A stretch of 64,000 bases of DNA from Patescibacteria group bacterium (GTDB taxonomy: Bacteria > Patescibacteriota > Microgenomatia > UBA1400 > PJMF01). Positions 2,475-18,965 of the stretch are shown one piece after another (positions within the stretch are counted from its first letter, which is position 1; each line of letters opens with the position of its first letter). The notes under the pieces were generated by a model. The model was not told the DNA's origin. It worked only from the letters and a program-made list of their open reading frames with translations, and made no database searches. Location: contig BOKR01000001.1 in the NCBI GenBank assembly GCA_016861085.1, positions 1,098,040 to 1,162,039 on the forward strand, read 5' to 3'. Position numbers and translations under genes: made by a program.

Positions 2475-2855
2475 ATGTTTTTTGGATTAGTACCAACCGC
2501 TTATGCTCAGGCTGAAGTTAATGAAAGTCCCTGTGGCGCCGGCACTGGAGGTATTGATCTCGGAAACTGTCTGCGACTCTCAGATAGCACTAAAGTCAGC
2601 GACGTATATGATACTCCCGCGTTCTTAGTCAATTTATTCGTAAGCAATATTTTTGTTATTGCAGGTATTGTCTTCTTTCTTATTGTCATTGTTGCAGGAT
2701 TTAAATTTATTATGGGCGGACAAAAAGGCGCTGAAGACGCAAAAGGTATCTTCCAGGCAGCATTAACTGGTTTTATCATCATGTTTGCAGCATATTGGAT
2801 TATTCAAATTGTCGCCTTGTTGACCGGCATACAAATACCTGGAGTAAGCGAATAA
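2475..2855 (+). CDS. TrbC/VirB2-like T4SS pilin paralog P1 (short 12-aa leader ending YAQ, then 2 TM helices)
   Basis: Architecture is leader-AQ / TM1 / short loop / TM2. It is paralogous to seven downstream genes. An in-frame TAG lies immediately upstream of the ATG, so the short leader is real. Confidence 0.5.
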   Translation: MFFGLVPTAYAQAEVNESPCGAGTGGIDLGNCLRLSDSTKVSDVYDTPAFLVNLFVSNIFVIAGIVFFLIVIVAGFKFIMGGQKGAEDAKGIFQAALTGFIIMFAAYWIIQIVALLTGIQIPGVSE

Positions 2856-2856
2856 T

Positions 2857-3240
2857 ATGTCACTCTTTTCTTTCCCTAAAGTCTATGCTCAAACACCAGA
2901 AGAATTGGTTGGAGACATTGCAATCCCAAAGGGTGTTGACCTCATTAATCAAGACGCAGGTGGCATTGGGGTTGTTTTATTCATCTCTAATATGATCCGA
3001 CTTATTATTATTCTAGGAGGAGTGTGGGCACTTTTGAATATTATTCTTGCTGCATTTGCGTACCTTACTGGGGGCGGAAAACCAGACACACATAGTAAAG
3101 TCAGTAGTCGGTTCACCATGAGTGTTATTGGCTTGTTATTAATGATTGTTTCATACAGTATTGCAGCACTCATCGGTTTACTATTCTACGGAGAAGCATC
3201 ATATATCCTTACACCAACAATAACACCAATTGGTGGATAA
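2857..3240 (+). CDS. TrbC/VirB2-like pilin paralog P2 (short leader MSLFSFPKVYAQ)
   Basis: Loop motif FAYLTGGGKPDTHSKVSSRF between two TM helices. C-terminal tail ILTPTITPIGG. Starts 1 nt after the P1 stop. Confidence 0.5.
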   Translation: MSLFSFPKVYAQTPEELVGDIAIPKGVDLINQDAGGIGVVLFISNMIRLIIILGGVWALLNIILAAFAYLTGGGKPDTHSKVSSRFTMSVIGLLLMIVSYSIAALIGLLFYGEASYILTPTITPIGG

Positions 3241-3245
3241 CAGAT

Positions 3246-3827
3246 ATGAAAGTATTTTTAATAAAAGCAATCAGACAGATCATCTTAAGTATTTTTACTG
3301 TGTTAATTTTTGCAGGTGTACTATTTTCCCCTCAGCTTTCTATTACAAAACAAACTTTTGCAGCAGACGGGTGTGCATATGCAGGACACTGCATAAATAA
3401 CAAAAAATGTGTTTGCCCTATCCCTGGTTATTATGACTGCAGATATAGTCCCCAAGCTTTGGTTTTAGGTGAAGAGCCTTGCGGTTCTGCAATTATTGGT
3501 GGTGTTGAACCTCCAGCTGCAGTTGGAGCTATCAATGCTGCATCAGGTGGTGACATTGGTTTGATTTTTTTCATTTCTCGAGCAATTGGTTTTGCTAATA
3601 TTGTTGCAGGAATTCTAGTAATGATTAACTTTGTTGTCGCAGGATTTTTGTATGTGACTGGGGCCGGTAACCCTAGCAATATGGCTAAGATTAATGAACG
3701 GATGCTCTGGAGTTTTGTTGGTATATTAATAATAGTTGGTTCTTATTCTCTGGCTGCCTTGTTTGGCTTAATATTTTATGGAGATCCGACTTTTATCATT
3801 ACTCCAACATTAACAGGAGCAGTTTAA
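3246..3827 (+). CDS. TrbC/VirB2-like pilin paralog P3 with a Cys-rich N-terminal insert
   Basis: Full signal/TM leader, a Cys-rich ~50-aa insert, then a conserved 2-TM core (FLYVTGAGNPSNMAKINERMLWSF) and the tail IITPTLTGAV. Confidence 0.5.
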   Translation: MKVFLIKAIRQIILSIFTVLIFAGVLFSPQLSITKQTFAADGCAYAGHCINNKKCVCPIPGYYDCRYSPQALVLGEEPCGSAIIGGVEPPAAVGAINAASGGDIGLIFFISRAIGFANIVAGILVMINFVVAGFLYVTGAGNPSNMAKINERMLWSFVGILIIVGSYSLAALFGLIFYGDPTFIITPTLTGAV

Positions 3828-3863
3828 TAAATACTTGGTATAATAAAGAAAAGAAAAGTCAGT

Positions 3864-4235
3864 ATGTTACTACCAACACTCATTGCACAACAATTTGGAA
3901 GTTTTAAACCAACCTCACCTCTCGTCGAGGGCGCTGAAGAAAATCCGGGAGCAAACTTAGAAGCAATTATTTCAAATGTACTTGGGGTTTTAACAATTGT
4001 TGGTGGAATTTTCTTCATTATTTATTTTATGGTGGCATCCTTTGAGTGGATTACAGCTGGCGGTGATGCTGGAAAACTTACTACTGCGCGAAATAAAATG
4101 ATGCAAGGAGTTTTAGGACTCATTGTATTGGTCGCAGCGTATGGAATTATTGGTCTTATTGGTAGCTTAGTTGGAATAGAGTTACTTAAACCAGCTGAAC
4201 TGCTTGAAAGTGTCACACCTGGTACGGGAACCTAA
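3864..4235 (+). CDS. TrbC/VirB2-like pilin paralog P4 (short leader MLLPTLIAQ)
   Basis: Core motif FEWITAGGDAGKLTTARNKMMQGVLGLIVL is shared with P5-P8. Confidence 0.5.
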   Translation: MLLPTLIAQQFGSFKPTSPLVEGAEENPGANLEAIISNVLGVLTIVGGIFFIIYFMVASFEWITAGGDAGKLTTARNKMMQGVLGLIVLVAAYGIIGLIGSLVGIELLKPAELLESVTPGTGT

Positions 4236-4237
4236 TT

Positions 4238-4660
4238 ATGAAATACCTTTCAAAAAAAATTACTACAGTTTTAACAGCACTTGGATTATTTTTATCAAAA
4301 ATTGTTTTCGTTCATGCCCAAATCAAAAATCCTGTAACAGGAGAACTAGGTGCAGATGCAGAAGAAGCTGCTTCAGGAGAAATTTTTGTGAGTTATTTTG
4401 TTACTTTATGGAATGCCTTCATTACCATTGGCGCAATAGCTGTTTTAATCATGTTCCTCTGGGGGGCACTTGAATGGATTACCGCCGGTGGTGAAGCCAG
4501 TAAAATTGAGAAAGCTCGTAATAGAATTATGCAGTCTTTCTTAGGTTTGCTCATTTTAGTTAGCTCATTTGTAATTATTGGTTTTGTCAGTCAATTATTC
4601 TTTGGTGAGGAATTTTCTATCCTTAACTTAACATTTACACAGGTTGGAGGTGAAGAATGA
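4238..4660 (+). CDS. TrbC/VirB2-like pilin paralog P5 (full signal peptide ...VHAQ)
   Basis: LEWITAGGEASKIEKARNRIMQSFLGLLIL core. Starts 2 nt after the P4 stop. Confidence 0.55.
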   Translation: MKYLSKKITTVLTALGLFLSKIVFVHAQIKNPVTGELGADAEEAASGEIFVSYFVTLWNAFITIGAIAVLIMFLWGALEWITAGGEASKIEKARNRIMQSFLGLLILVSSFVIIGFVSQLFFGEEFSILNLTFTQVGGEE

Positions 4661-5178
4661 AACAACTTTTTTTGACATTTTTACTTTTGCTTTCAATTGA
4701 AGTTGGTGTAGTAACACAAAAAGTACAACTCACTTCCACTGTTTATGCTCAAGAGCCAATTGAGCTCAACTTTGGAGATGTTGCCGATGAACGGGAGATT
4801 ATTGGTACAGATCTATACGAACCAGATGATGGTGAAGCTGGTTTTGGTGCGTTAATTGGTCGAATATTAACAATAGTAGTCACAATTGCTTCTATTATGG
4901 TGTTAATCATGTTCCTCTGGGGTGGTCTAGAATGGATTACTGCTGGTGGAGATAAAAGTAAAATTGAAAAAGCTCGTAATAGAATTACACAATCCTTTAT
5001 TGGAATGATTGTATTAGCTGCCATGCTTGCTTTGTTTATGCTTTTACAACTTTTCCTTGACTTTGAAGTATTTACCTTTGGTGGAGGTTCTTCTAACACA
5101 TCCACACCTCCAAGTGTTCCTGGAAATCCTAGCCAACCTGGCTGGCCTGGAGCTCCTGGAGGAAACATACCTTTATAG
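4657..5178 (+). CDS. TrbC/VirB2-like pilin paralog P6 with a C-terminal Pro/Gly-rich tail
   Basis: LEWITAGGDKSKIEKARNRITQSF core. ATGA overlap with P5. Tail is PPSVPGNPSQPGWPGAPGGNIPL. Confidence 0.55.
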   Translation: MKQLFLTFLLLLSIEVGVVTQKVQLTSTVYAQEPIELNFGDVADEREIIGTDLYEPDDGEAGFGALIGRILTIVVTIASIMVLIMFLWGGLEWITAGGDKSKIEKARNRITQSFIGMIVLAAMLALFMLLQLFLDFEVFTFGGGSSNTSTPPSVPGNPSQPGWPGAPGGNIPL

Positions 5179-5190
5179 TAAAAAGTAAAC

Positions 5191-5220
5191 TTGACGTTCT
5201 GTCTCAAGCACAGGTATAAT
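5191..5220 (+). promoter_or_regulatory. sigma70-like promoter (TTGACG-N18-TATAAT) for pilin paralog P7
   Basis: TTGACG at 5191-5196 and TATAAT at 5215-5220. The RBS AAAAGGA precedes the ATG at 5269. Confidence 0.55.
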
Positions 5221-5268
5221 TAGTAATAAGTAGTCAGTAATTAGCTGAAAAATAAAAAAGGAACACAT

Positions 5269-5637
5269 ATGAGAAACAAACTCAACGGTTTAGCTCTAAC
5301 AGCAGCCGCATTTGTAACATCAGCTCCAGCAGTATTTGCACAAATTCAAGTTGAAGAACCAGATTCATTCTTCTTTTCTGATATTGGTACACTGATTAAT
5401 AAAGCACTTAACTTTGTTATGGTACTTGGTGCTCTTTTGGTCTTCATGTACCTCATCTGGGGTGGAATTGAATGGATTACTTCTGGTGGTGACAAGGGTA
5501 AGACTGAGAGTGCTAGAAACAAGATTACCGCTGCAGTTCTTGGTTTGATCGTCCTTGCTGCATCTTGGGCAATTCTTGGCCTCGTCCTTAACTTCTTAGG
5601 CGCAGGTTCATTAAATGATGTCTTAGATAACATTTAA
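5269..5637 (+). CDS. TrbC/VirB2-like pilin paralog P7, monocistronic; candidate major expressed pilin
   Basis: Signal peptide ...VFAQ, core IEWITSGGDKGKTESARNKITAAVLGLIVL. It has its own promoter, a strong RBS and an intrinsic terminator. Confidence 0.6.
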   Translation: MRNKLNGLALTAAAFVTSAPAVFAQIQVEEPDSFFFSDIGTLINKALNFVMVLGALLVFMYLIWGGIEWITSGGDKGKTESARNKITAAVLGLIVLAASWAILGLVLNFLGAGSLNDVLDNI

Positions 5638-5658
5638 TACAGATTAGTTTTTTGAAAA

Positions 5659-5687
5659 GCCCCTCATTTATGTGAGGGGCTTTTTTA
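5659..5687 (+). terminator. Rho-independent terminator after P7
   Basis: GCCCCTCA-tttatg-TGAGGGGC followed by TTTTTT. Confidence 0.8.
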
Positions 5688-5752
5688 TTGATTTGTTAAA
5701 GGGGTGTGCTCCTTCGTCACTCCTAAAAAATCAATGTTATAATTAATTCATC

Positions 5753-6190
5753 ATGACTGGAAAAAACTATTTCTCTAAACTTGAAAAAATTTTTATTGCT
5801 GGTGTTGCTTACTTATATTCAACTTCAACAGCATTTGCTCAAACTACTGCCTGGTCTGGTGTGTGTGTAGGTGGAGTTGATAATGACGTTGCAACTATCC
5901 AAGGTCTTGAGTGTTTGATTGCAAATGTTTTCACCGTCATAATTACATTAATTGGTTTAGCAGCATTTGTGATGCTTATTGTAGGGTCTGTGCGCTGGTT
6001 AGTCTCTGGAGGTAATTCCTCTAATATAGATAAAGCCCGAAGCACTATGACCTATGCGGTGATTGGAATTGTTGTTGCACTTAGTGCATTTATTGTGCTC
6101 AATTTAATTGCTGGATTTACTGGTGTTGAAACAATCAAAACATTTACCATTCCTACTTCAGAAGATGTTGAACCACCTCCAAGTCCGTAA
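5753..6190 (+). CDS. TrbC/VirB2-like pilin paralog P8 (divergent)
   Basis: Signal ...TAFAQ, core VRWLVSGGNSSNIDKARSTMTYAVIGIVVAL, Pro-rich C-terminus. Confidence 0.5.
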   Translation: MTGKNYFSKLEKIFIAGVAYLYSTSTAFAQTTAWSGVCVGGVDNDVATIQGLECLIANVFTVIITLIGLAAFVMLIVGSVRWLVSGGNSSNIDKARSTMTYAVIGIVVALSAFIVLNLIAGFTGVETIKTFTIPTSEDVEPPPSP

Positions 6191-6244: not shown

Positions 6245-9200
6245 GTGCACAAAAAAGTACTGAGACTTCTGGTTCTACAGGTATTGTTTTTGTTGGTCTC
6301 ACTTGCAAAATTTGCAACACCAACCCATACTTTTGCGTCCGAGTTAATTGGTACTCACCTGGGTGAAGGTGATGTTGGGTATCAAGTCAACATCATCAAT
6401 ACAATCCTCATTCCTAATGGTTTAGAACCAGGAAGCCCAGTGACAGTCATGGTGCCTGTCACAATGCTACAGTCAAGCCAACAAGGATCAGTGCAACAAC
6501 TGGCAGCTGTTGTAGCTGGTGGTGGATTTTTTCCTATAGTTAGAATTAATGGAGTTTGTGAAGATTTTACTTCAGAAACAGGGCTAGATGCAGGGCAAGC
6601 AGTTGACCTTGCTCGAAATATTTTTGGTTCACAAGCATTGATTGTCTGGGGAAATGAAATTAATAATAAAGAAAACGAATGCCGCAATTGGTCAAAATAT
6701 GTAAGTGATTGGGCAAAAATTAGTGGGAAATCAAACGTCAGTCCAGCTGCTCTTGATTATTATATGGGACTGGATGCCTATAAAGTTTCTACTATGTTTG
6801 CCGAAACTCCTGGGATGGCAGCAATATTTAATACTGCACCAAGAGCTGCAAATGCGTACGGTTGTATTGGCCAAACAGCAGAAAGTTGCGAACCACTTGA
6901 AACAGTCACTCAACAAATTGGATATGAAGCTATTAATGGGACTCTCTTCCTTACAGAGTTTTCACTTTCTCCTGGAGGGAGTGCTCCAAATGCCCCAGAC
7001 ACCAATATTCAAAAAGTTTTAGAATTTATAGCGAGTAGAGCCGGTGAGACTCCCGCTGTAAAAGTCACCCCCCTTGTCAGGAATGTTTGTAACAATGAGA
7101 GTGACTGGTTACTTTACATTAATGGTAAATTATTTACTCCTCAAGGTACCGAAGTTTCTGAAAACTGCGAAGGAAGATCTGCAGACTCTAGTTATGATTT
7201 GAGCATTTATCCTGAGTATGATGTTGATGAAACCAAATTTTTCCTTTCCCCCATCAGAAACGTTATTGACTCAGGAAGCCTCCAGAGAACTACTGAAAAA
7301 TTAAGAAAAGAACTCGCACTACAAGGATATCAAGCATACTGTGCAACTGAGGGAGTTAAAATTGAACCTGAATATAACACTCAAGAAAAAATTAATCGGT
7401 ATTTTCTTCCAGAAAATTATAAAGGAGTTCAAATACTTGAGTTAGATGCAGTCGAAACCCTCAATATGACCAATGCTCAATACCCATTATGGAGAGATGT
7501 GAGTAACAAGCAATTTTTGCTTACCTCTCTTGAGGAATATTTTGGCTTTCGCGATGTGTACGTTTCCAACCCAGCCGATGCAGTACTAAACAGTTCCCCT
7601 ATCAACTCACTTCTTTCTGAGCCACAACTTTGTATGCAAGGGTGGAGAAATTTAGTAGCCCAAGAACTAGCTTGTGAGAGATTACAAAACCCTGGTGAAT
7701 GCGAACTTTTTACCAGACCAATCCCCAACTCGGCAATACCATACAATCCAGGTGTTGGCCCAGAGCTGTCACAGCAACAACAAAATATAGCTCCTCTTCC
7801 AACTGAAACGGAATTTACAGTCAAAACCTTACTTGATAAGTTAAAAGAATATGAGCCTGCATATAGAGATGGTACTGCAAAAGTTGGCTGTGAAGCCCTG
7901 ACGACAACTGATAGAGCCAGCAATGAGGCACTTTTACAAGGCCTTATGAACACCCCAACATATTTTGACAGAGCCTACAGATACGGATTTCTTGTTGCAG
8001 CAATCCATGCTAAAGATCCTGGCACAGATGAAGGTAATATTGCTACAAAACTATTTAATTTCTTCACCAAGAGAACTAGAACTCTTACTCCAGATGACGA
8101 AGTCTTGGTAGCCGCCTTTAAAATCCCAGATATTGGAACAAATAAAGGTGGTGGAGATGATACCGGTTCTCAATTTTGGTCTGATCCACTTGATTTAACT
8201 AGACAATTACTATTTAAAAACAAAGATAATAAAACCCATGAAGATGTAGATAGACCAAATAAGAGACAAACTATATTAGACCGAGCTGTTGGAGCAGCAA
8301 CACAAAATTCGGGAAGTAAAATTTATTGTGTGGATGGAAATAAAGCAACGGTCTCTTGTCAGAATGAGTTAACAAAAGCATTAACAGATATTATTAACGG
8401 AAATGTAGAAGGTTGTGGTGAGGCTGAAGCTGTAAACGTGATAAAAGACCTTGCTGGACTTGATAATCCTGCAGAGAAATATGGGAAAGCATTTAATAGC
8501 GATAATGGTCAACAAGTTATGCTTAACTTATTCTTTAAAGACCTTACTCACCCACCTCTTGGGGGCAATGGCCAAACAAATCCACAAATAGCAAAGACTG
8601 ATGATCCTGCGGAAAAATTACAATCATTATTTACTATTTCTGAAGATACCTGGCCTCCTGCAGTTGATTCAACTACTGTAGACTTTTATATTGTGTATCC
8701 AATGGGTTTCGAGCTTGATGCAGTTGAAAAAGCAATGAAGAGTGCGTTCTTTACCAAGGCTCAATTAGCCGCTTTAGAGACTGGGAATACTGTGGGAGGG
8801 TTTGAAATGACTGGACAAGCAATTGGTCTTGATGCTGGGTCTGTAGGTTTTAATTATGTTGACGAAATAAAGACGGCAAATGGAGAATGCGGTACTGAAG
8901 TAGCTACTTCAGGTGCTGTTACAAACAAACCTTGCGAAGAAGAGGTCACTATTGGGGTTAAACAGGAAAGTGCTGGAGTTGGAATACTTGGTGCTGAATT
9001 GGGATATTGGATGAGAAAAATTCAACTTCAACTCAACTCTCGCGCCTCAGAAGCATGGGCATACTTTGATTCGTGTAAAACAACAGAAGAATTTTTGCTA
9101 GGTCAATGTACTGGTGGAAATATAACTGGAAATGAAGGCGATGATGCACCACCAGTTACTGGTGATGCACTGGAGTCAGTTGCTCAATGTGATGGTGGAC

Positions 9201-9763
9201 CAAGAATCACTTCAGGAGAAACAGCAGAACACGTGGATACAACTGGAACCGGTGAATGTACTGGGAAACTCACCAGACTTTTTGTACCTGATGTTCATAA
9301 CATATCTGCCTGGAAAAATCCTGGTGATGCTGTCATCGATTGTGAAGACTTATACTCATATGCCGATTGTACATATCCCGAATCCCTCGTTCAAAATCCG
9401 GTTAATAGCCAAGGACAATTCGTAGAATCTGGAAATATAACGGCATGTGAGTTTGTAGTTAATGCGGCCAAAAGCGCTGGAGTTAGTCCAAGACTTGCTT
9501 TAGCAATGTGGGGTGAGGAGTCTGGCTTTAGCCATTATCGAGTCGCAGATTTTGGTGTGATTTCTAAACCAGCCCAAGATTTAGGTGCCCAAGTGAACTC
9601 ATTTATTAACATCTTGAAATCATATTCTTCATACATTGAATTTTTAGAAGCCTATTCTGGTGAAGAACGCGGATCTGGTGATCAGAGTCCAAATCAATTC
9701 TGTAACAATCCTAATTTTGTTGGAAGATTAAAGACATACTACGATTTTCTAGGTCCACAATAG
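6245..9763 (+). CDS. Large (1172 aa) Cys-containing secreted/anchored protein with a C-terminal peptidoglycan glycan-hydrolase-like domain (ESG motif of SLT/GH73 type); candidate PrgK/TraG(pIP501)/VirB1-like cell-wall hydrolase
   Basis: N-terminal signal/anchor LRLLVLQVLFLLVSLAKFA. C-terminus AAKSAGVSPRLALAMWGEESGFSHYRVADFGVISKP resembles the ESG(W/F)...FG motif of PG glycosidases. The ~1000 aa in between are unassigned. Confidence 0.4.
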   Translation: MHKKVLRLLVLQVLFLLVSLAKFATPTHTFASELIGTHLGEGDVGYQVNIINTILIPNGLEPGSPVTVMVPVTMLQSSQQGSVQQLAAVVAGGGFFPIVRINGVCEDFTSETGLDAGQAVDLARNIFGSQALIVWGNEINNKENECRNWSKYVSDWAKISGKSNVSPAALDYYMGLDAYKVSTMFAETPGMAAIFNTAPRAANAYGCIGQTAESCEPLETVTQQIGYEAINGTLFLTEFSLSPGGSAPNAPDTNIQKVLEFIASRAGETPAVKVTPLVRNVCNNESDWLLYINGKLFTPQGTEVSENCEGRSADSSYDLSIYPEYDVDETKFFLSPIRNVIDSGSLQRTTEKLRKELALQGYQAYCATEGVKIEPEYNTQEKINRYFLPENYKGVQILELDAVETLNMTNAQYPLWRDVSNKQFLLTSLEEYFGFRDVYVSNPADAVLNSSPINSLLSEPQLCMQGWRNLVAQELACERLQNPGECELFTRPIPNSAIPYNPGVGPELSQQQQNIAPLPTETEFTVKTLLDKLKEYEPAYRDGTAKVGCEALTTTDRASNEALLQGLMNTPTYFDRAYRYGFLVAAIHAKDPGTDEGNIATKLFNFFTKRTRTLTPDDEVLVAAFKIPDIGTNKGGGDDTGSQFWSDPLDLTRQLLFKNKDNKTHEDVDRPNKRQTILDRAVGAATQNSGSKIYCVDGNKATVSCQNELTKALTDIINGNVEGCGEAEAVNVIKDLAGLDNPAEKYGKAFNSDNGQQVMLNLFFKDLTHPPLGGNGQTNPQIAKTDDPAEKLQSLFTISEDTWPPAVDSTTVDFYIVYPMGFELDAVEKAMKSAFFTKAQLAALETGNTVGGFEMTGQAIGLDAGSVGFNYVDEIKTANGECGTEVATSGAVTNKPCEEEVTIGVKQESAGVGILGAELGYWMRKIQLQLNSRASEAWAYFDSCKTTEEFLLGQCTGGNITGNEGDDAPPVTGDALESVAQCDGGPRITSGETAEHVDTTGTGECTGKLTRLFVPDVHNISAWKNPGDAVIDCEDLYSYADCTYPESLVQNPVNSQGQFVESGNITACEFVVNAAKSAGVSPRLALAMWGEESGFSHYRVADFGVISKPAQDLGAQVNSFINILKSYSSYIEFLEAYSGEERGSGDQSPNQFCNNPNFVGRLKTYYDFLGPQ

Positions 9764-9794
9764 TGTGAAACTCATTCAAACTTTAGATAAAAAT

Positions 9795-10883
9795 TTAGGT
9801 CGAACTTGGTCCAAATCCTGAGGGATTATAGTTCAAGTCTCCTGGTTTAGGAGTATTTGTTTCCTTTTCAGGTGACTGCACGCCCTGTTGAATTTTAGAC
9901 TTATTTTTACTTCCTCTTGGTCTACCTCTTCCCCGTTTTGGTTCACTGGGAATACTCTTTTCTGACAGAATTTGAGGTTGTGGTGATACCGTTTCTTCTA
10001 CAACAAATACTTCGTCATCTTCATTTTGGCTTGATTGATTAAATACTTCTTGCTCAGTTTCATTTTCATTATTTGCAAGCTCATCACTTTGAGCTTCACG
10101 AGCAAATCTTCGTGCTCCGCTCCTGAGTAAGTAAGATACGACTTCAAACGTATCTGCGGTTGCTAAGTATGACTCTAAATTGTCTGTTTCTTCGTCGATA
10201 CCAGCAAGTAGATTAGTGGCAACTTCTTGATCTAGTTGATAGTTTAGTTCCCTTAAAAGTAACGCAACGTATTCACTGACACTCGAACTTCCCAAAATAT
10301 CTAATTTCAAATTTCCAAATGAGGTCTCGTATGAGTTAATACTGACTAAGGCTGTATTTTGGTACAAATTTTCGTACCCAATATACAGTTGATCAAGTGA
10401 TTCTAAATCATCAACTCCAACCAAAATCACCATGTCTGCTTCTGCACCAGTGTAAGAAAAGGTAACATTCTCTCTAGAAAGTGGATTTACACCTTTTTTT
10501 GGCTTAATCGTGAGATACAGTTTTTGAGTTGATTCATCTATTGCAGAGGTAATTTTTTCGACAGTTTCTGGTGTGTAGTCTAATGTTATACACAAGTTCT
10601 TGTTGCCGACCTCAGTTCTAGTTTCATCTAAATAGACGATATCAGGTTCTGCACTTGCTAAACTTTCACTAGATAACAAAGTAATTGACTTATTCCCTAA
10701 TTGTTGGAATGTTTTATATAGTGCGGTTGCAGCAAACAAATGATCACGTAAAGCATCTGGTGCATATATAATTAATACCGACTCTGCTTGAGCGAATAAT
10801 TCTTTAAAAAGGGATACTTTGTGCTGATCAATCATACTATCTTTATAGGTCATATTATATACTATATATGACAAAATATACAC
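9795..10883 (-). CDS. Degenerate DHH/DHHA1 (NrnA-like) family protein with an acidic linker and C-terminal AT-hook (KRGRGRPRGSKNK)
   Basis: IIYAPDALRDHLFAATAL aligns to the NrnA HxxPDGDAxGS region but lacks the catalytic residues. The GRGRPRG AT-hook sits near the C-terminus. Confidence 0.35.
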   Translation of the reverse strand: MYILSYIVYNMTYKDSMIDQHKVSLFKELFAQAESVLIIYAPDALRDHLFAATALYKTFQQLGNKSITLLSSESLASAEPDIVYLDETRTEVGNKNLCITLDYTPETVEKITSAIDESTQKLYLTIKPKKGVNPLSRENVTFSYTGAEADMVILVGVDDLESLDQLYIGYENLYQNTALVSINSYETSFGNLKLDILGSSSVSEYVALLLRELNYQLDQEVATNLLAGIDEETDNLESYLATADTFEVVSYLLRSGARRFAREAQSDELANNENETEQEVFNQSSQNEDDEVFVVEETVSPQPQILSEKSIPSEPKRGRGRPRGSKNKSKIQQGVQSPEKETNTPKPGDLNYNPSGFGPSST

Positions 10884-10995
10884 AGTTTAAAAGATATTTC
10901 AAGACTTACAATGCATTTCTTGCGATCAAAGTAGGTAAAGCGTATTTTACAAGTATATTCAGACTCACAAGTCTTTGTTATAATAGTATTCAAAT

Positions 10996-12633
10996 ATGGC
11001 AAAAAAAGCGCTTGCTATACTGCTGGTTCTCTTTTCATTCTTGGTAGTTACTACCAAAATTTCTTACGCACAAACACCAACACCTACTCCAATTCCTCTT
11101 TATGACGAACCATTCTCACCACAATCAGATGCTGGGCTCGTTAAAAGCTACAGAGCTGCAATTGATGATGACGGGTGTATGACACCCTCATTAGAATGTT
11201 TAGTACATCAAGTTTTTAGGTTTGTTTCATTAGAATTTGTAAACTCAACTTTATACACAGAATTCAAACCAAATATAGAAGAAGAAGCTCAAGGACCTGC
11301 TACAAATAAAAATATATTAGCAAGTGCTGGAACACTCATTGGTCATTTTTATGGATATCCTGTTGCGAATACTCAAACGTATGTTGCAGACCTCATGGAT
11401 TCAGCACATATTACTCCAAGAGCATATGCTCAAGGCCTAGGATTTGCATCTTTAAATCCTATTCTTGAACTTTGGAAAGCATTCAGAAATGTTGCGTACA
11501 TGTTCTTTGTTGTCATCTTTATTATTATTGGTTTTATGATCATGTTTAGACAAAGGATTGGTGGACAGGCAGCAATTACTGCTCAACAAGCAATTCCAAG
11601 TGTTATCGTAAGCTTACTTTTAGTCACGTTTTCTTATGCAATTGCCGGTTTTATGATAGACATGATGTATGTCCTCATGTTCCTCATCATAGGTATTTTT
11701 GGACAAACACTTCCTGATGGAAGTACAAATCTCATTGACATGACAATATTACAAGTAGCTGGAGCACTTTTTAGAGCTACAAATGTTTTGAGTCCAGGAG
11801 AAAATATAGATCTTGTTAGTAACTTATTTGGTAGTCTTCTTGAGGTACCTGCTCTCAATTCAGTCCTTGGAATTGTTGGAGGTCTTACCTTAACCGTAGT
11901 GCTTGCTGTTGCAATCTTGATCGGGACTGTAAGACTCTTTTTTGAATTGCTAAAATCATATGCAAGTATCGTTATTAGTGTTGTCACTTCGCCAATAGTC
12001 TTGATGATGGGAGCTATTCCTGGTAAAAATCCAATTGTCCCCTGGATAAAAGACTTAATCGGAAACCTATTGCCATTTCCTGTCGTTTTGTTAGTTTTAG
12101 TGCTTTTTTATCAATTTAAGGCTGTAGGAAGTGGTGCCGGTAATGAAGGTGGATTTATTCCACCGTTCCTTATTGCCCGAGGGCAAGCAAATGCTATTGC
12201 AAGTTTAATGGGACTAGCCCTAATTCTAGCTTTACCAGAAATTGTTAAAGACGCCAAGAAAGGTCTTGTTAAAGAAGGCTTTGGTTCAATGGTGTTTAAA
12301 GCAGCTGCTGAATCTGCAAAACAAGGTTGGAAAGGTGGCGAAATTATTCCAGGGGCTGCTTGGTCTGCACCTGGGAAGTATGGAGTTTCTGGCAGCTTAG
12401 TTCCAGCAGTTACAGTTGGTGCTCCATTGGGAGCAGCAGGTGGAGCTATTGGTAACGTATTTAGAAGAAGAGTCCTTAGACAACCTATTAAAGAAGGTGC
12501 TCTCGAATCTGCAGGAGTTGGTGCACTCAGAGGTACTTTAAGGACTGGTGGTGCTCTGGGTAATAAGGTTCTGAATAAAGAAGCTCCAAAGAAAATTAGA
12601 GAGTTTGCAACGAAAGTTAGAAAAGGAATATAA
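10996..12633 (+). CDS. Polytopic membrane protein with signal peptide; candidate VirB6/TrbL-like T4SS channel component
   Basis: Signal peptide ...KISYAQ and five or more hydrophobic helices spread over 545 aa. Lies between the T4SS hydrolase and the VirB4 block. Confidence 0.4.
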   Translation: MAKKALAILLVLFSFLVVTTKISYAQTPTPTPIPLYDEPFSPQSDAGLVKSYRAAIDDDGCMTPSLECLVHQVFRFVSLEFVNSTLYTEFKPNIEEEAQGPATNKNILASAGTLIGHFYGYPVANTQTYVADLMDSAHITPRAYAQGLGFASLNPILELWKAFRNVAYMFFVVIFIIIGFMIMFRQRIGGQAAITAQQAIPSVIVSLLLVTFSYAIAGFMIDMMYVLMFLIIGIFGQTLPDGSTNLIDMTILQVAGALFRATNVLSPGENIDLVSNLFGSLLEVPALNSVLGIVGGLTLTVVLAVAILIGTVRLFFELLKSYASIVISVVTSPIVLMMGAIPGKNPIVPWIKDLIGNLLPFPVVLLVLVLFYQFKAVGSGAGNEGGFIPPFLIARGQANAIASLMGLALILALPEIVKDAKKGLVKEGFGSMVFKAAAESAKQGWKGGEIIPGAAWSAPGKYGVSGSLVPAVTVGAPLGAAGGAIGNVFRRRVLRQPIKEGALESAGVGALRGTLRTGGALGNKVLNKEAPKKIREFATKVRKGI

Positions 12634-16622: not shown

Positions 16623-16826
16623 CTAGTTATACAAAACTCTGTTCGCTTTTTCCATTGCACTTTTTTGATAATTTCTGATATAACTACAACAACCAAAATA
16701 ATTGTGGAATCTAGTGAAATTCTAGAACTGTGCCGCAACGGTAAATTTGGCTGATAATTCCAGATAAGTCCGGTCTTCAATCGTTTTGAGTATTGGGTAA
16801 CCAATACAAGTAATTACCAACGTGCA

Positions 16827-18965
16827 TTGGATATCATGCTATATCAACCAACCGTAGAACATATTCCCAGGTTTTTACCTTTTCAGGGTGAACGCTCGTT
16901 TTGCCCTTCACTACCTGAAAGAATTACTTCTGTTCACAAACAACTTTTGGAACAAAGATTGCTGTTTCAACAGTTAGTTACAGAACAACTTAGAAAAAGA
17001 AAAAACAAAAAAAAAGAAGCACTGCATTCCAAAAACTCTATTTGGGATGCTGTTAAACTAGCACAGAGATTTCAAAAACCAGAATACCATACAAGACAGG
17101 CAAAAATTGATTTATTACGCTTTGATGCAGTTCACCATGCAAAAGAAATGGCACTTGTTGAGCCAGTTACTACATTTAGCTATTGGCATACAGTAGAAAA
17201 CAATCAAACGCTAGGTGACGGATATTTTGAAGACATGGGCCTTATGCTCAATACCTTTACTCAGGATTTAGCCCAAAACGGGTTTAACGCCAATAGAGCA
17301 AGTATAGAGTCTATCACCTTTGAAAGAGCAAAAAATATTTTAACCAAAATCGCTACTACAGGAAAAAAAGATGCCCTCTTAATAACAAGTTTTCCAGATG
17401 ATATTGAATCTGGCTATCACGGAGTTGATTCTAAACATAATTGGGACAAACCAGAAACGCACCATTCTTTTTACTACTTATTACAGGTAGGTGCAATTCA
17501 TAAAGATAAAGGTGGTTCAGTAACACAGTTTGAAATACATACTACTCAGTTCCGGGCTTGGCCAAATGCTCGTCAAGCGATTCAATTTCATGAACAACTT
17601 GGCTCTCCACTTACTCAATTTGACGCTCCAATCCCTAATTTATTATTTGCAAACACGATTCAATTAACTCAAGAAAACTTGGAATCTATCGCTAGCAGCA
17701 TGGGATTAACTGGACAATCAAGTATCGAGTCACTATTTAGAGAAATTTTGAACAGCTCTTCAGAAGAACATAGTATAAACAGCACACATATTCCTAAAGT
17801 GAATCTTTCAGAATTCTGGCAGGTTCAAGAAAATTATTTTAACGATTTTTATCTCACTGTTGCCCTCCCCGTTTTTGAAGAAATTTCTCAATTAGAAAAT
17901 AAAAAAATGGATCAAAAAACACAAAAATATCTTCAAACAAAAATTGATTATTTAGATAAAGCCTTCTTTTACTATTCAAAAATTATTCTTGGGTGGATTA
18001 AGATCCATAATACCAATCCAAATTATCTGGCTACATTTGCAGAAAAAAGTCGCATTCAAAAACTTATGGACTTTCAACAGAAATTACTGTTACAACTTTT
18101 GGGACAAAAACAAACAAATGATATCCCAAGCATTGATGATCTTAAAACAGTACTTGATATTGACCATAGACTAGCAACTCGACAAGCTGTTACAGGTGAA
18201 GAAAAGAAAAAATTATTGAGTATATGGGGATTTTTTTCTTACGTTGGCAATTTTGCGAGCTTATTGCAGTGTGGGGCTATGACGCCTTTTTCTATTCCCC
18301 TTTCAATTATGAATAGCACTCCAACTATGGGAGTATCACTTGCAGAGTTTTCTGGCTCACTGGTATCTATCTCATTGCCAGAAAGACAAAAGTTTTTATC
18401 ACTACTACAAAAAGAAACATATATTGAACTTGACTTAACAAAGCAAACCCCAGCAGCAAAGCGAGTGTATGTTGTACCCAAAAGTTACCTTGATGGTGCA
18501 GGTTGTATTGTAAATGACTCAGGTGAAGTATTAGGACCTTGTGTTGACCCTGTAACAAAACAGAGAATTTCTCTTGATGATCCAAGGGATACATTGGCTT
18601 TTCCAATGACTCTTGCTGAATTTACGCAATATATTAATAAATTGCAACAAAGTATTGAACAAACATCACTAACACAAATAGATTCTATTTTTCAAACAAG
18701 TGATTTTTCACCAATTGAAAAAAGAAAAGCTCAAGCTGTTATAAAAAAAATGAGACAAAAATTGATAAAAAATTCACTTGGTCTGCAAGAATTTATTTCT
18801 GGAAATATAACAAATGATCTCGAGTCAAATAATATATGGCTTCAAGAGTTAATTTTGAAATTGGCGTTTTCTATCAATCCAGTTCAAACCCTTATTGAAG
18901 AGGTTGAGCTTAGATTAAGGGAAAAAGATCCTATTTTGGAAGAGATTTTTGAGCAAAATAGCTAG
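16827..18965 (+). CDS. Hypothetical protein (712 aa), function unknown
   Basis: Long ORF. First gene of a long plus-strand block that runs into virB4. Confidence 0.5.
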   Translation: MDIMLYQPTVEHIPRFLPFQGERSFCPSLPERITSVHKQLLEQRLLFQQLVTEQLRKRKNKKKEALHSKNSIWDAVKLAQRFQKPEYHTRQAKIDLLRFDAVHHAKEMALVEPVTTFSYWHTVENNQTLGDGYFEDMGLMLNTFTQDLAQNGFNANRASIESITFERAKNILTKIATTGKKDALLITSFPDDIESGYHGVDSKHNWDKPETHHSFYYLLQVGAIHKDKGGSVTQFEIHTTQFRAWPNARQAIQFHEQLGSPLTQFDAPIPNLLFANTIQLTQENLESIASSMGLTGQSSIESLFREILNSSSEEHSINSTHIPKVNLSEFWQVQENYFNDFYLTVALPVFEEISQLENKKMDQKTQKYLQTKIDYLDKAFFYYSKIILGWIKIHNTNPNYLATFAEKSRIQKLMDFQQKLLLQLLGQKQTNDIPSIDDLKTVLDIDHRLATRQAVTGEEKKKLLSIWGFFSYVGNFASLLQCGAMTPFSIPLSIMNSTPTMGVSLAEFSGSLVSISLPERQKFLSLLQKETYIELDLTKQTPAAKRVYVVPKSYLDGAGCIVNDSGEVLGPCVDPVTKQRISLDDPRDTLAFPMTLAEFTQYINKLQQSIEQTSLTQIDSIFQTSDFSPIEKRKAQAVIKKMRQKLIKNSLGLQEFISGNITNDLESNNIWLQELILKLAFSINPVQTLIEEVELRLREKDPILEEIFEQNS

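Follow-up and report, generated by a model that had tools for sequence, protein, structure and literature searches.

Which enzyme opens the glycan layers of the cell envelope for the Patescibacteria's type IV secretion system (T4SS)? VirB1 homologues were mostly not found near virB4 or pilin genes in a survey of these systems, most pilin-bearing genomes had no recognisable VirB1, and other glycosidases were proposed as possible substitutes (PMC12102498). We have examined the question for the open reading frame (ORF) at positions 6245-9763 (+) of a 64,000-nucleotide stretch of a Patescibacteria genome (contig BOKR01000001.1), which we call the window. The gene lies right after a set of T4SS pilin genes, which makes its product a promising candidate for the factor that opens the cell wall for the apparatus. 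The reading we prefer, and hold at about even confidence, is that the product is a pilus-linked, two-headed envelope glycosidase, a Sec-exported and disulfide-rich protein of three modules. The parts of the gene are as follows.

6245-9763 (+): whole ORF, 1172 amino acids plus stop; predicted secreted three-module protein
6245-6337 (+): predicted signal peptide, residues 1-31, with a K/R-rich n-region, a hydrophobic stretch (5-23) and a THTFA/SE cleavage-type site
6344-7144 (+): N-terminal (beta/alpha)8 barrel, probable clan GH-A-like glycosidase head, residues about 34-300 (structure model, Foldseek, chain of hhalign comparisons)
6653-6658 (+): codons of N137-E138, the predicted acid/base pair after strand 4 (132-135) (conservation, structure model)
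6956-6958 (+): codon of E238, the predicted nucleophile on strand 7 (234-241) (conservation, structure model)
7202-9109 (+): family-defining Cys-rich core, residues about 320-955, mixed alpha/beta, fold unmatched (profile coverage, structure model)
9113-9367 (+): variable low-confidence linker, residues 957-1041 (predicted local distance difference test, pLDDT, below 50; lowest alignment occupancy)
9368-9760 (+): C-terminal lysozyme-like domain, residues 1042-1172 (structure model, Foldseek match to GH23, weak Pfam match to GH73)
9518-9526 (+): codons of E1092-S1093-G1094, E1092 being the predicted catalytic Glu (conservation, structure model)

The original prediction, made from the sequence alone, described a Cys-rich secreted protein of 1172 residues directly after a pilin array, and in this it was right. 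The reading frame, with GTG as start codon and TAG as stop, spans 1172 codons, and an identical 1172-residue protein (P0001) has been called independently in a public assembly. It is no chance ORF, because homologues were found both by a word-index search (58) and by an exhaustive profile search (538). Its 24 cysteines make up 2.05% of the residues, about four times the share in the window's 33 remaining long ORFs (0.54%). Of the 24, 21 are kept in 80% or more of 36 homologues, as would suit an exported protein with structural disulfides. Residues 2-27 are the sole hydrophobic segment in a hydropathy scan, an N-terminal hydrophobic segment is found in 165 of 188 family members, and the THTFA/SE sequence that follows it is plausibly a signal peptidase I site. 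The highest Cys share among the long ORFs of the window belongs to another gene, a 215-residue ORF at 62665-63312 (+) with 12 Cys (5.6%).

Two predicted glycosidase heads

The original prediction left the first 1050 or so residues unassigned and took a C-terminal motif to be the only recognisable part of the protein. Neither statement can be kept: some 270 of these residues form what is probably a clan GH-A-type glycosidase domain, and conserved sequences, VWGNEINN (with N137 and E138) and LFLTEFSL (with T237 and E238), fall on strands 4 and 7 of the modelled barrel. The full-length AlphaFold2 model has a mean pLDDT of 76.6, with most of the N-terminal domain at 80-94, and residues 34-300 or thereabouts are modelled, at high pLDDT, as eight units in which strand and helix alternate. 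An Asn-Glu pair after strand 4 and a Glu on strand 7 are the defining geometry of glycoside hydrolase (GH) clan GH-A, the ‘4/7 superfamily’. Across 36 homologues N137 is invariant and E138, T237, and E238 are present in at least 90%; among the 12 closer homologues (alignment A5) all four are invariant. Foldseek against the PDB places a GH79 beta-glucuronidase, a GH5_18 enzyme, the GH30 xylanase XynC, and GH5 mannanases at the top (E 1e-3 to 3e-2, probability 0.98-1.00), and against BFVD the top matches are phage GH5 domains.

Other members of the family have alternative N-terminal modules, nearly all with canonical NEP motifs (ELANEPH, GPNEPD, PWNEPN, and HNEPNC), some of which reach the Pfam thresholds for GH5 or Glyco_hydro_cc. 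Profiles of the N-terminal domains were compared by hhalign without the shared linker that precedes the core, which had supplied most of an earlier score. The window type matches the HNEPNC type with 89% probability (E 2e-6), and in this alignment LTEFS of the window type falls on ITESG, which carries the nucleophile Glu. The HNEPNC type in turn matches the GPNEP type (98.8%) and the ELANEP type that Pfam assigns to GH5 (63.5%). A direct transfer of the Pfam GH5 assignment of one relative (P0026) to the window protein was ruled out, as the two N-terminal modules do not align. Because the isolated N-terminal domain has no Pfam match even at E ≤ 1, we call it clan GH-A-like and give it no CAZy family. 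Its likeness to the clan (nearest GH5, GH79, and GH30) lies, as modelled, in the barrel, the placement of the two glutamates, Arg, Tyr, and Trp residues conserved on adjacent strands, and the relatives with GH5 or Glyco_hydro_cc at the same position. It differs in having no CAZy-type hidden Markov model (HMM) match in the searched sets, a GNE(I/V)NN sequence in place of NEP, and several conserved disulfide-type Cys. We suggest that residues 34-300 are probably a second glycosidase head.

The C-termini of the family fall into several types in the 36-sequence alignment. The first, window-like type reads (C)EYVV..A...G(V/I)SPR(L/F)ALAMWGEESGF...DFGV, and the second, related type NP.(L/I)...(I/M)..(N/T)E(S/T)GG...FGC; a third is a classical SLT_3 sequence, ICNAESGGNPNA...VDYSVGLFQIN, and there are a few others besides. 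At the position of the C-terminal domain, Pfam finds SLT_3 in 14 of the 36 closer relatives and in 7 of the 35 more distant ones, and SLT in two. In the window protein, the motif PRLALAMWGEESGFSHYRVADFGVISKP occupies residues 1082-1109. When 43 diverse domains of the first two types are aligned, only P1082, E1092, G1094, and G1104 are invariant; there is no invariant second acidic residue beside the Glu of the invariant ESG(F/G). The AlphaFold2 model of the domain alone (1042-1172) is helical, with a pLDDT of 85.4 and a predicted TM-score of 0.81, and E1092-S1093 sits in the last turn of the helix formed by residues 1082-1093.

The original prediction had likened the C-terminus to the SLT and GH73 glycan hydrolases. 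Comparison of the modelled domain did show some similarity to lysozyme-like folds: the Foldseek matches in the PDB are the cod g-type lysozyme (3gxk; E 1.2e-2, probability 0.99, TM-score 0.48), MltF (5aa4; probability 0.90, TM-score 0.50), and the GH23 chitinase of Ralstonia (3w6e; probability 0.72). These three GH23 enzymes are the only matches with a probability above 0.5, all others being below 0.1. At the sequence level the likeness is to GH73: PF01832 is the only family that recurs when the 43 isolated domains are run against Pfam (6 of 43, best E 0.0026), other families, SLT_2 (E 0.048) included, being seen once each. The window domain matches positions 4-96 of the 123 in this profile at E 0.043, scoring 14.9 bits where the curated cut-off is 30.2; the relative P0055 matches it at E 0.057. 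Profile A3, the broader of the family profiles, gave weak matches in the PDB to C-type lysozyme and MltC, confined to C-termini of the SLT_3 type, and a word-index search with the C-terminal domain alone returned two short fragments only. One further similarity, of the helix-ESG segment GVSPRLALAMWGEESG (9488-9530, residues about 1075-1095) to HGLTPQQVVAIASNEGG of a TAL effector (PDB 4osw, E 0.08), was judged a coincidence.

With GH23 (goose-type lysozyme, SLT and MltF; SLT PF01464, SLT_3 PF18896) the domain thus has in common a helical fold, whose best and sole credible matches in the PDB are GH23 enzymes, a Glu-Ser at the end of a helix, an invariant Gly some 10 residues further on (DFGV here, GLMQ in GH23), and SLT_3 or SLT domains at the same position in paralogous members of the family. 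With GH73 (PF01832; FlgJ, AcmA, and Auto) it shares the pattern helix-ESG(F/G)...(D)FG(V/I), to be compared with ESGWG...NLFGIK, but the score is under the cut-off, few members match, and neither a second catalytic residue nor the YATD motif was identified here. The data give modest support to a divergent member of the lysozyme-like superfamily that would lie between GH23, by its modelled fold, and GH73, by its sequence pattern. The catalytic Glu is very probably E1092, which belongs to the ESG motif pointed out in the original prediction.

Several observations weigh against two active glycosidase heads mounted on a pilus. Both Foldseek results are marginal by E value (1.2e-2 for the C-terminal domain, 1e-3 for the barrel) and both have TM-scores of about 0.5 or lower; in the PDB comparison the TIM barrels of Old-yellow-enzyme type score nearly as high as the GH-A barrels. 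Neither the whole protein nor its modules have an above-threshold HMM match in Pfam or NCBIfam, the C-terminal domain falling below the thresholds of both SLT and GH73, and searches of PDB sequences, with the whole protein as well as with the family profiles, found nothing. Alignment of the window-type to the SLT_3-type C-terminal domains by hhalign is not significant (probability 0.2%). The SLT motifs GLMQ and AYNxG are not present, the sequence here being DFGVIS, without the Gln. Lastly, the evidence for docking to the pilus consists of gene order and two fusion proteins, which are described below.

Some of these observations would also be expected if the two terminal domains were catalytically dead glycan-binding modules and the protein a pilus tip adhesin or a structural stalk; an adhesin was among the roles that the original prediction considered for the N-terminal region. 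HMM scores under the family thresholds, the missing SLT motifs II and III, and the long conserved core to which no function is assigned all agree with such a role. However, N137, E138, E238, and E1092 stay conserved across homologues of 27-80% identity, and inactivated domains usually lose their catalytic residues. We therefore give this explanation little credence and continue with two active heads.

The conserved core and the pilin genes

The 58 homologues from the word-index search are 1076-1309 residues long and 27-100% identical to the window protein; two more (P0012 and P0017) are truncated or partial at about 880 residues. All the full-length homologues are from metagenome genomes of Patescibacteria (Microgenomatia/Woesebacteria/Pacebacteria), the closest named one, at 78% identity, from a Candidatus Woesebacteria genome. 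The exhaustive search yielded its 538 representatives at E ≤ 1e-3, with 210 of them at E ≤ 1e-30. By sequence, these more than 500 clusters at 50% identity form a large uncharacterised domain family, one that is not described in the published survey of the patescibacterial T4SS (PMC12102498). Most of the representatives have in common only profile positions 305-955 or so, and we therefore regard the central part as the core that defines the family. The window-type N-terminal domain is limited to about the top 30 representatives, and other members have a different N-terminal module of about 300 residues or lack one altogether; variability is greatest at the C-terminus. Both terminal modules are swapped between family members.

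The core is confidently modelled by AlphaFold2 as mixed alpha/beta subdomains. It has six invariant Cys (463, 477, 486, 549, 944, and 955) and the conserved motifs QGYEAYCA, SLEEYFGF, and FKIPDIGTNKGG. No match to it was found in Pfam (71 members, and three sub-pieces at E ≤ 1), NCBIfam, or PHROGs, nor in PDB sequence profiles or by Foldseek against the PDB and BFVD; profile A3 likewise found nothing in the PDB for this part. Neighbouring proteins, too, had no Pfam match at E ≤ 1.

The genes upstream link the ORF to the T4SS. They are arranged as follows.

2475-6190 (+): eight VirB2-like pilin genes (PF18895, T4SS_pilin), directly upstream of the ORF (Pfam)
5654-5743 (+): strong terminator-like hairpin with a stem of 14 bp (5654-5685), then a promoter-like site (5714-5743, extended -10) (consensus scan only)

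All eight upstream genes match PF18895, five of them above or near the curated cut-off, and the eighth ends 55 nucleotides before the ORF on the same strand. Pilin arrays are common in Microgenomatia (PMC12102498). The hairpin is located inside the array, between the seventh and eighth pilin genes, and the same consensus scan found no terminator between the last pilin gene (5753-6190) and the ORF. A terminator and a promoter before the last pilin gene suggest that this gene and the ORF share one transcription unit, and the array may be split into two such units.

We collected 29 loci, five by way of homologous proteins and 24 from species-representative genomes; the genome collection was scanned with 12 closer sequences as seeds, and the loci with an HMM of the eight pilins in the window. 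In 28 of the 29, one to ten pilin-like ORFs on the same strand fill the upstream flank up to the gene, the sole exception being a 2.6-kb contig without upstream DNA. Across the 29 loci there are no pilin matches downstream of the gene or on the other strand. The downstream order is conserved as well, with proteins of about 270-365 residues (minus strand), 550-620 residues (plus), and 900-1370 residues (minus). In Microgenomatia the gene has a fixed place at the end of the VirB2-like pilin operon. Moreover, one family member (P0048, at 8001-11231 of locus L003) and a fragment (P0179) carry a VirB2-like T4SS_pilin hairpin in place of the C-terminal enzyme domain, in P0048 above the Pfam cut-off. 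By their sequences the two are natural fusions that link the family to pilins.

The record titles of many of these loci (L006-L008, L010, L012-L014, L016, L020-L022, L024, L027, and L028) read ‘Pseudomonadales bacterium’, although the locus is specific to Patescibacteria; the records that look mislabelled include isolates HK-STAS-PATE-15 and -16. This looks like a problem of taxonomy labelling in the source records.

The constancy of the locus bears on a simpler explanation, in which the protein is a general extracellular enzyme for glycan scavenging or autolysis that shares an operon with pilins without a mechanistic link to the secretion apparatus. Bacteria of the candidate phyla radiation (CPR) depend on external sugars and wall fragments, scavenging enzymes often contain clan GH-A and lysozyme-like domains, and the evidence that connects the protein with the pilus is indirect. 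On the other hand, such an enzyme would have no evident reason to keep its place behind the pilins in 28 loci of different species, to retain the same downstream neighbours, or to occur in pilin-fused variants, and a conserved non-catalytic core of 640 residues would be superfluous. We consider scavenging improbable and prefer an enzyme linked to the pilus.

The envelope that may be cut

The window is part of a Patescibacteria (CPR) chromosome: it holds dnaA, dnaN, yidC, and the genes for ribosomal protein L25 and leucyl-tRNA synthetase, which rules out a conjugation gene of a plasmid or an integrative and conjugative element. PrgI (VirB3-like) and a VirB4-like ATPase are encoded just before dnaA, 14-17 kb downstream of the ORF, and this arrangement near dnaA is as the survey describes it (PMC12102498).

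Three other genes in the region deserve mention. The product of 10996-12633 (+) has 545 residues, a signal-like N-terminus, and many hydrophobic segments, with no Pfam or PHROG match; each of the five loci with available gene tables has a counterpart of about 550-620 residues in this position. It is a candidate for a highly divergent VirB6/PrgH, a component described in the literature as ‘scarce’ in Microgenomatia. A 712-residue ORF (16827-18965, no Pfam match) within the conserved T4SS-associated cluster has directly upstream of it, and overlapping its start, a match to the AdoCbl (cobalamin) riboswitch at 16679-16837 (+), which at 51.4 bits is just over the Rfam gathering score of 50. The third gene, 18999-23318 (+), encodes 1439 residues: a long N-terminal region that does not begin like a signal peptide, then, late in the sequence, clustered hydrophobic segments that are rich in Gly/Ala and probably membrane-spanning, and after them a C-terminal region with HETGH, a motif of the HExxH metalloprotease type. 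In loci L002 and L003 the large genes (more than 1290 residues) at the equivalent end encode Peptidase_M23 (plus a weak NAGPA match). The 18999-23318 product may be a membrane-anchored wall-remodelling enzyme of the system.

Local cutting of the cell's own wall for T4SS assembly is the role of VirB1 and, in Gram-positive bacteria, of PrgK, TraG of pIP501, and TcpG. The original prediction compared the window protein with the latter three; as a functional analogy this is plausible from the position of the gene, but no homology was found. Like the hydrolases of known systems (VirB1 of Agrobacterium, PrgK of pCF10, TraG of pIP501, and TcpG of pCW3), the protein is predicted to be exported and to have a lysozyme-superfamily domain with a catalytic Glu, and its gene sits inside a type IV secretion/pilin cluster; like the Gram-positive ones it is multi-domain, with two predicted hydrolytic heads. 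The differences are considerable. The second head here is a clan GH-A-type TIM barrel and not CHAP, NlpC/P60, or LytM; a core of about 640 residues that is unique to the family makes up over half of the protein; a cleavable-looking signal peptide stands where a membrane anchor would be; lineages have swapped their heads; and the gene follows the pilins, about 16.6 kb from the virB4-like gene. Searches detected no homology to VirB1, PrgK, TraG, or TcpG, the profiles TrsG and CD419, which are specific to mating-pair formation, being outside the searched set. By Pfam, neither the window protein nor any of 71 relatives has a CHAP, NlpC/P60, or LytM/Peptidase_M23 domain, and among these enzyme types only SLT_3 or SLT is seen, in relatives. 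On sequence grounds the protein is not a member of the PrgK/TraG/TcpG family.

How, then, might the protein act? After export, the conserved core would dock it to the type IV secretion pilus or to the site where the pilus is assembled. The N-terminal head would cut a beta-linked envelope polysaccharide by a retaining double displacement, with E138 as acid/base and E238 as nucleophile. The C-terminal head would act on peptidoglycan and cut its glycan strands, E1092 serving as general acid; its activity could be that of a muramidase, of a glucosaminidase, or of a lytic transglycosylase. Together, the two heads would open the glycan layers for the passage of the pilus or channel.

The same chemistry could serve at home or abroad. 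The main competing explanation is VirB1-like housekeeping, that is, local cutting of the cell's own peptidoglycan, and possibly of a secondary wall polymer, for assembly of the channel or pilus. The lysozyme-like C-terminal domain is what such a role calls for, the place in the pilin operon recalls the adjacency of virB1 and virB2, and the scarcity of recognisable VirB1 in pilin-bearing Patescibacteria leaves room for a substitute glycosidase, as the survey proposed. Against it, the heads are exchanged among close lineages for other GH-A subtypes, other lysozyme-like types, or a pilin, which is unexpected if the substrate were the conserved own wall. There is no membrane anchor besides the cleavable-looking signal peptide, nor any homology or common architecture with PrgK, TraG, and TcpG, and the 18999-23318 product, with its HETGH motif and its Peptidase_M23 positional counterparts, could be the anchored wall-remodelling enzyme instead. 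We think housekeeping doubtful, though it is the strongest competitor of the pilus-linked envelope glycosidase.

For this glycosidase we suggest, as a weak preference, that the most likely target is the envelope of the partner (host) cell and not the own wall. We favour the host envelope because the exchange of both heads between related lineages is what would be expected of host-range determinants, and also because the 18999-23318 product looks the better candidate for an anchored wall remodeller. A more specific and still more tentative proposal, which we consider rather unlikely as it stands, is that the core is a pilus-docking or pilus-tip module on which exchangeable glycan-cutting heads are mounted, the pilus being a drill for the host envelope. 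Its logic would be that of a phage tail with depolymerase spikes. The analogy to phage tail-spike and tail-fibre depolymerases and to tail lysins is functional only: these too combine a conserved attachment part with exchangeable glycan-cleaving heads, and their genes stand beside those of filament or structural proteins. There is no homology, however: PHROGs has no match for the protein, its relatives, or its neighbours, BFVD returned GH5 barrels only, and the gene studied here is a chromosomal bacterial gene.

In the one patescibacterium that is genetically tractable, epibiotic growth requires the T4SS and its pilin array (as cited in PMC12102498 and PMC12857230). As the last gene of the pilin operon, coding for a protein with two probable glycosidase heads, the family offers a concrete protein that may supply the missing activity for opening the wall, and E138, E238, and E1092 are three sites at which point mutations can test it. 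The swapping of heads may track host range. If the pilus does act as an envelope drill, this would explain how ultrasmall episymbionts breach the walls of their partners and why they seem to lack VirB1 homologues.

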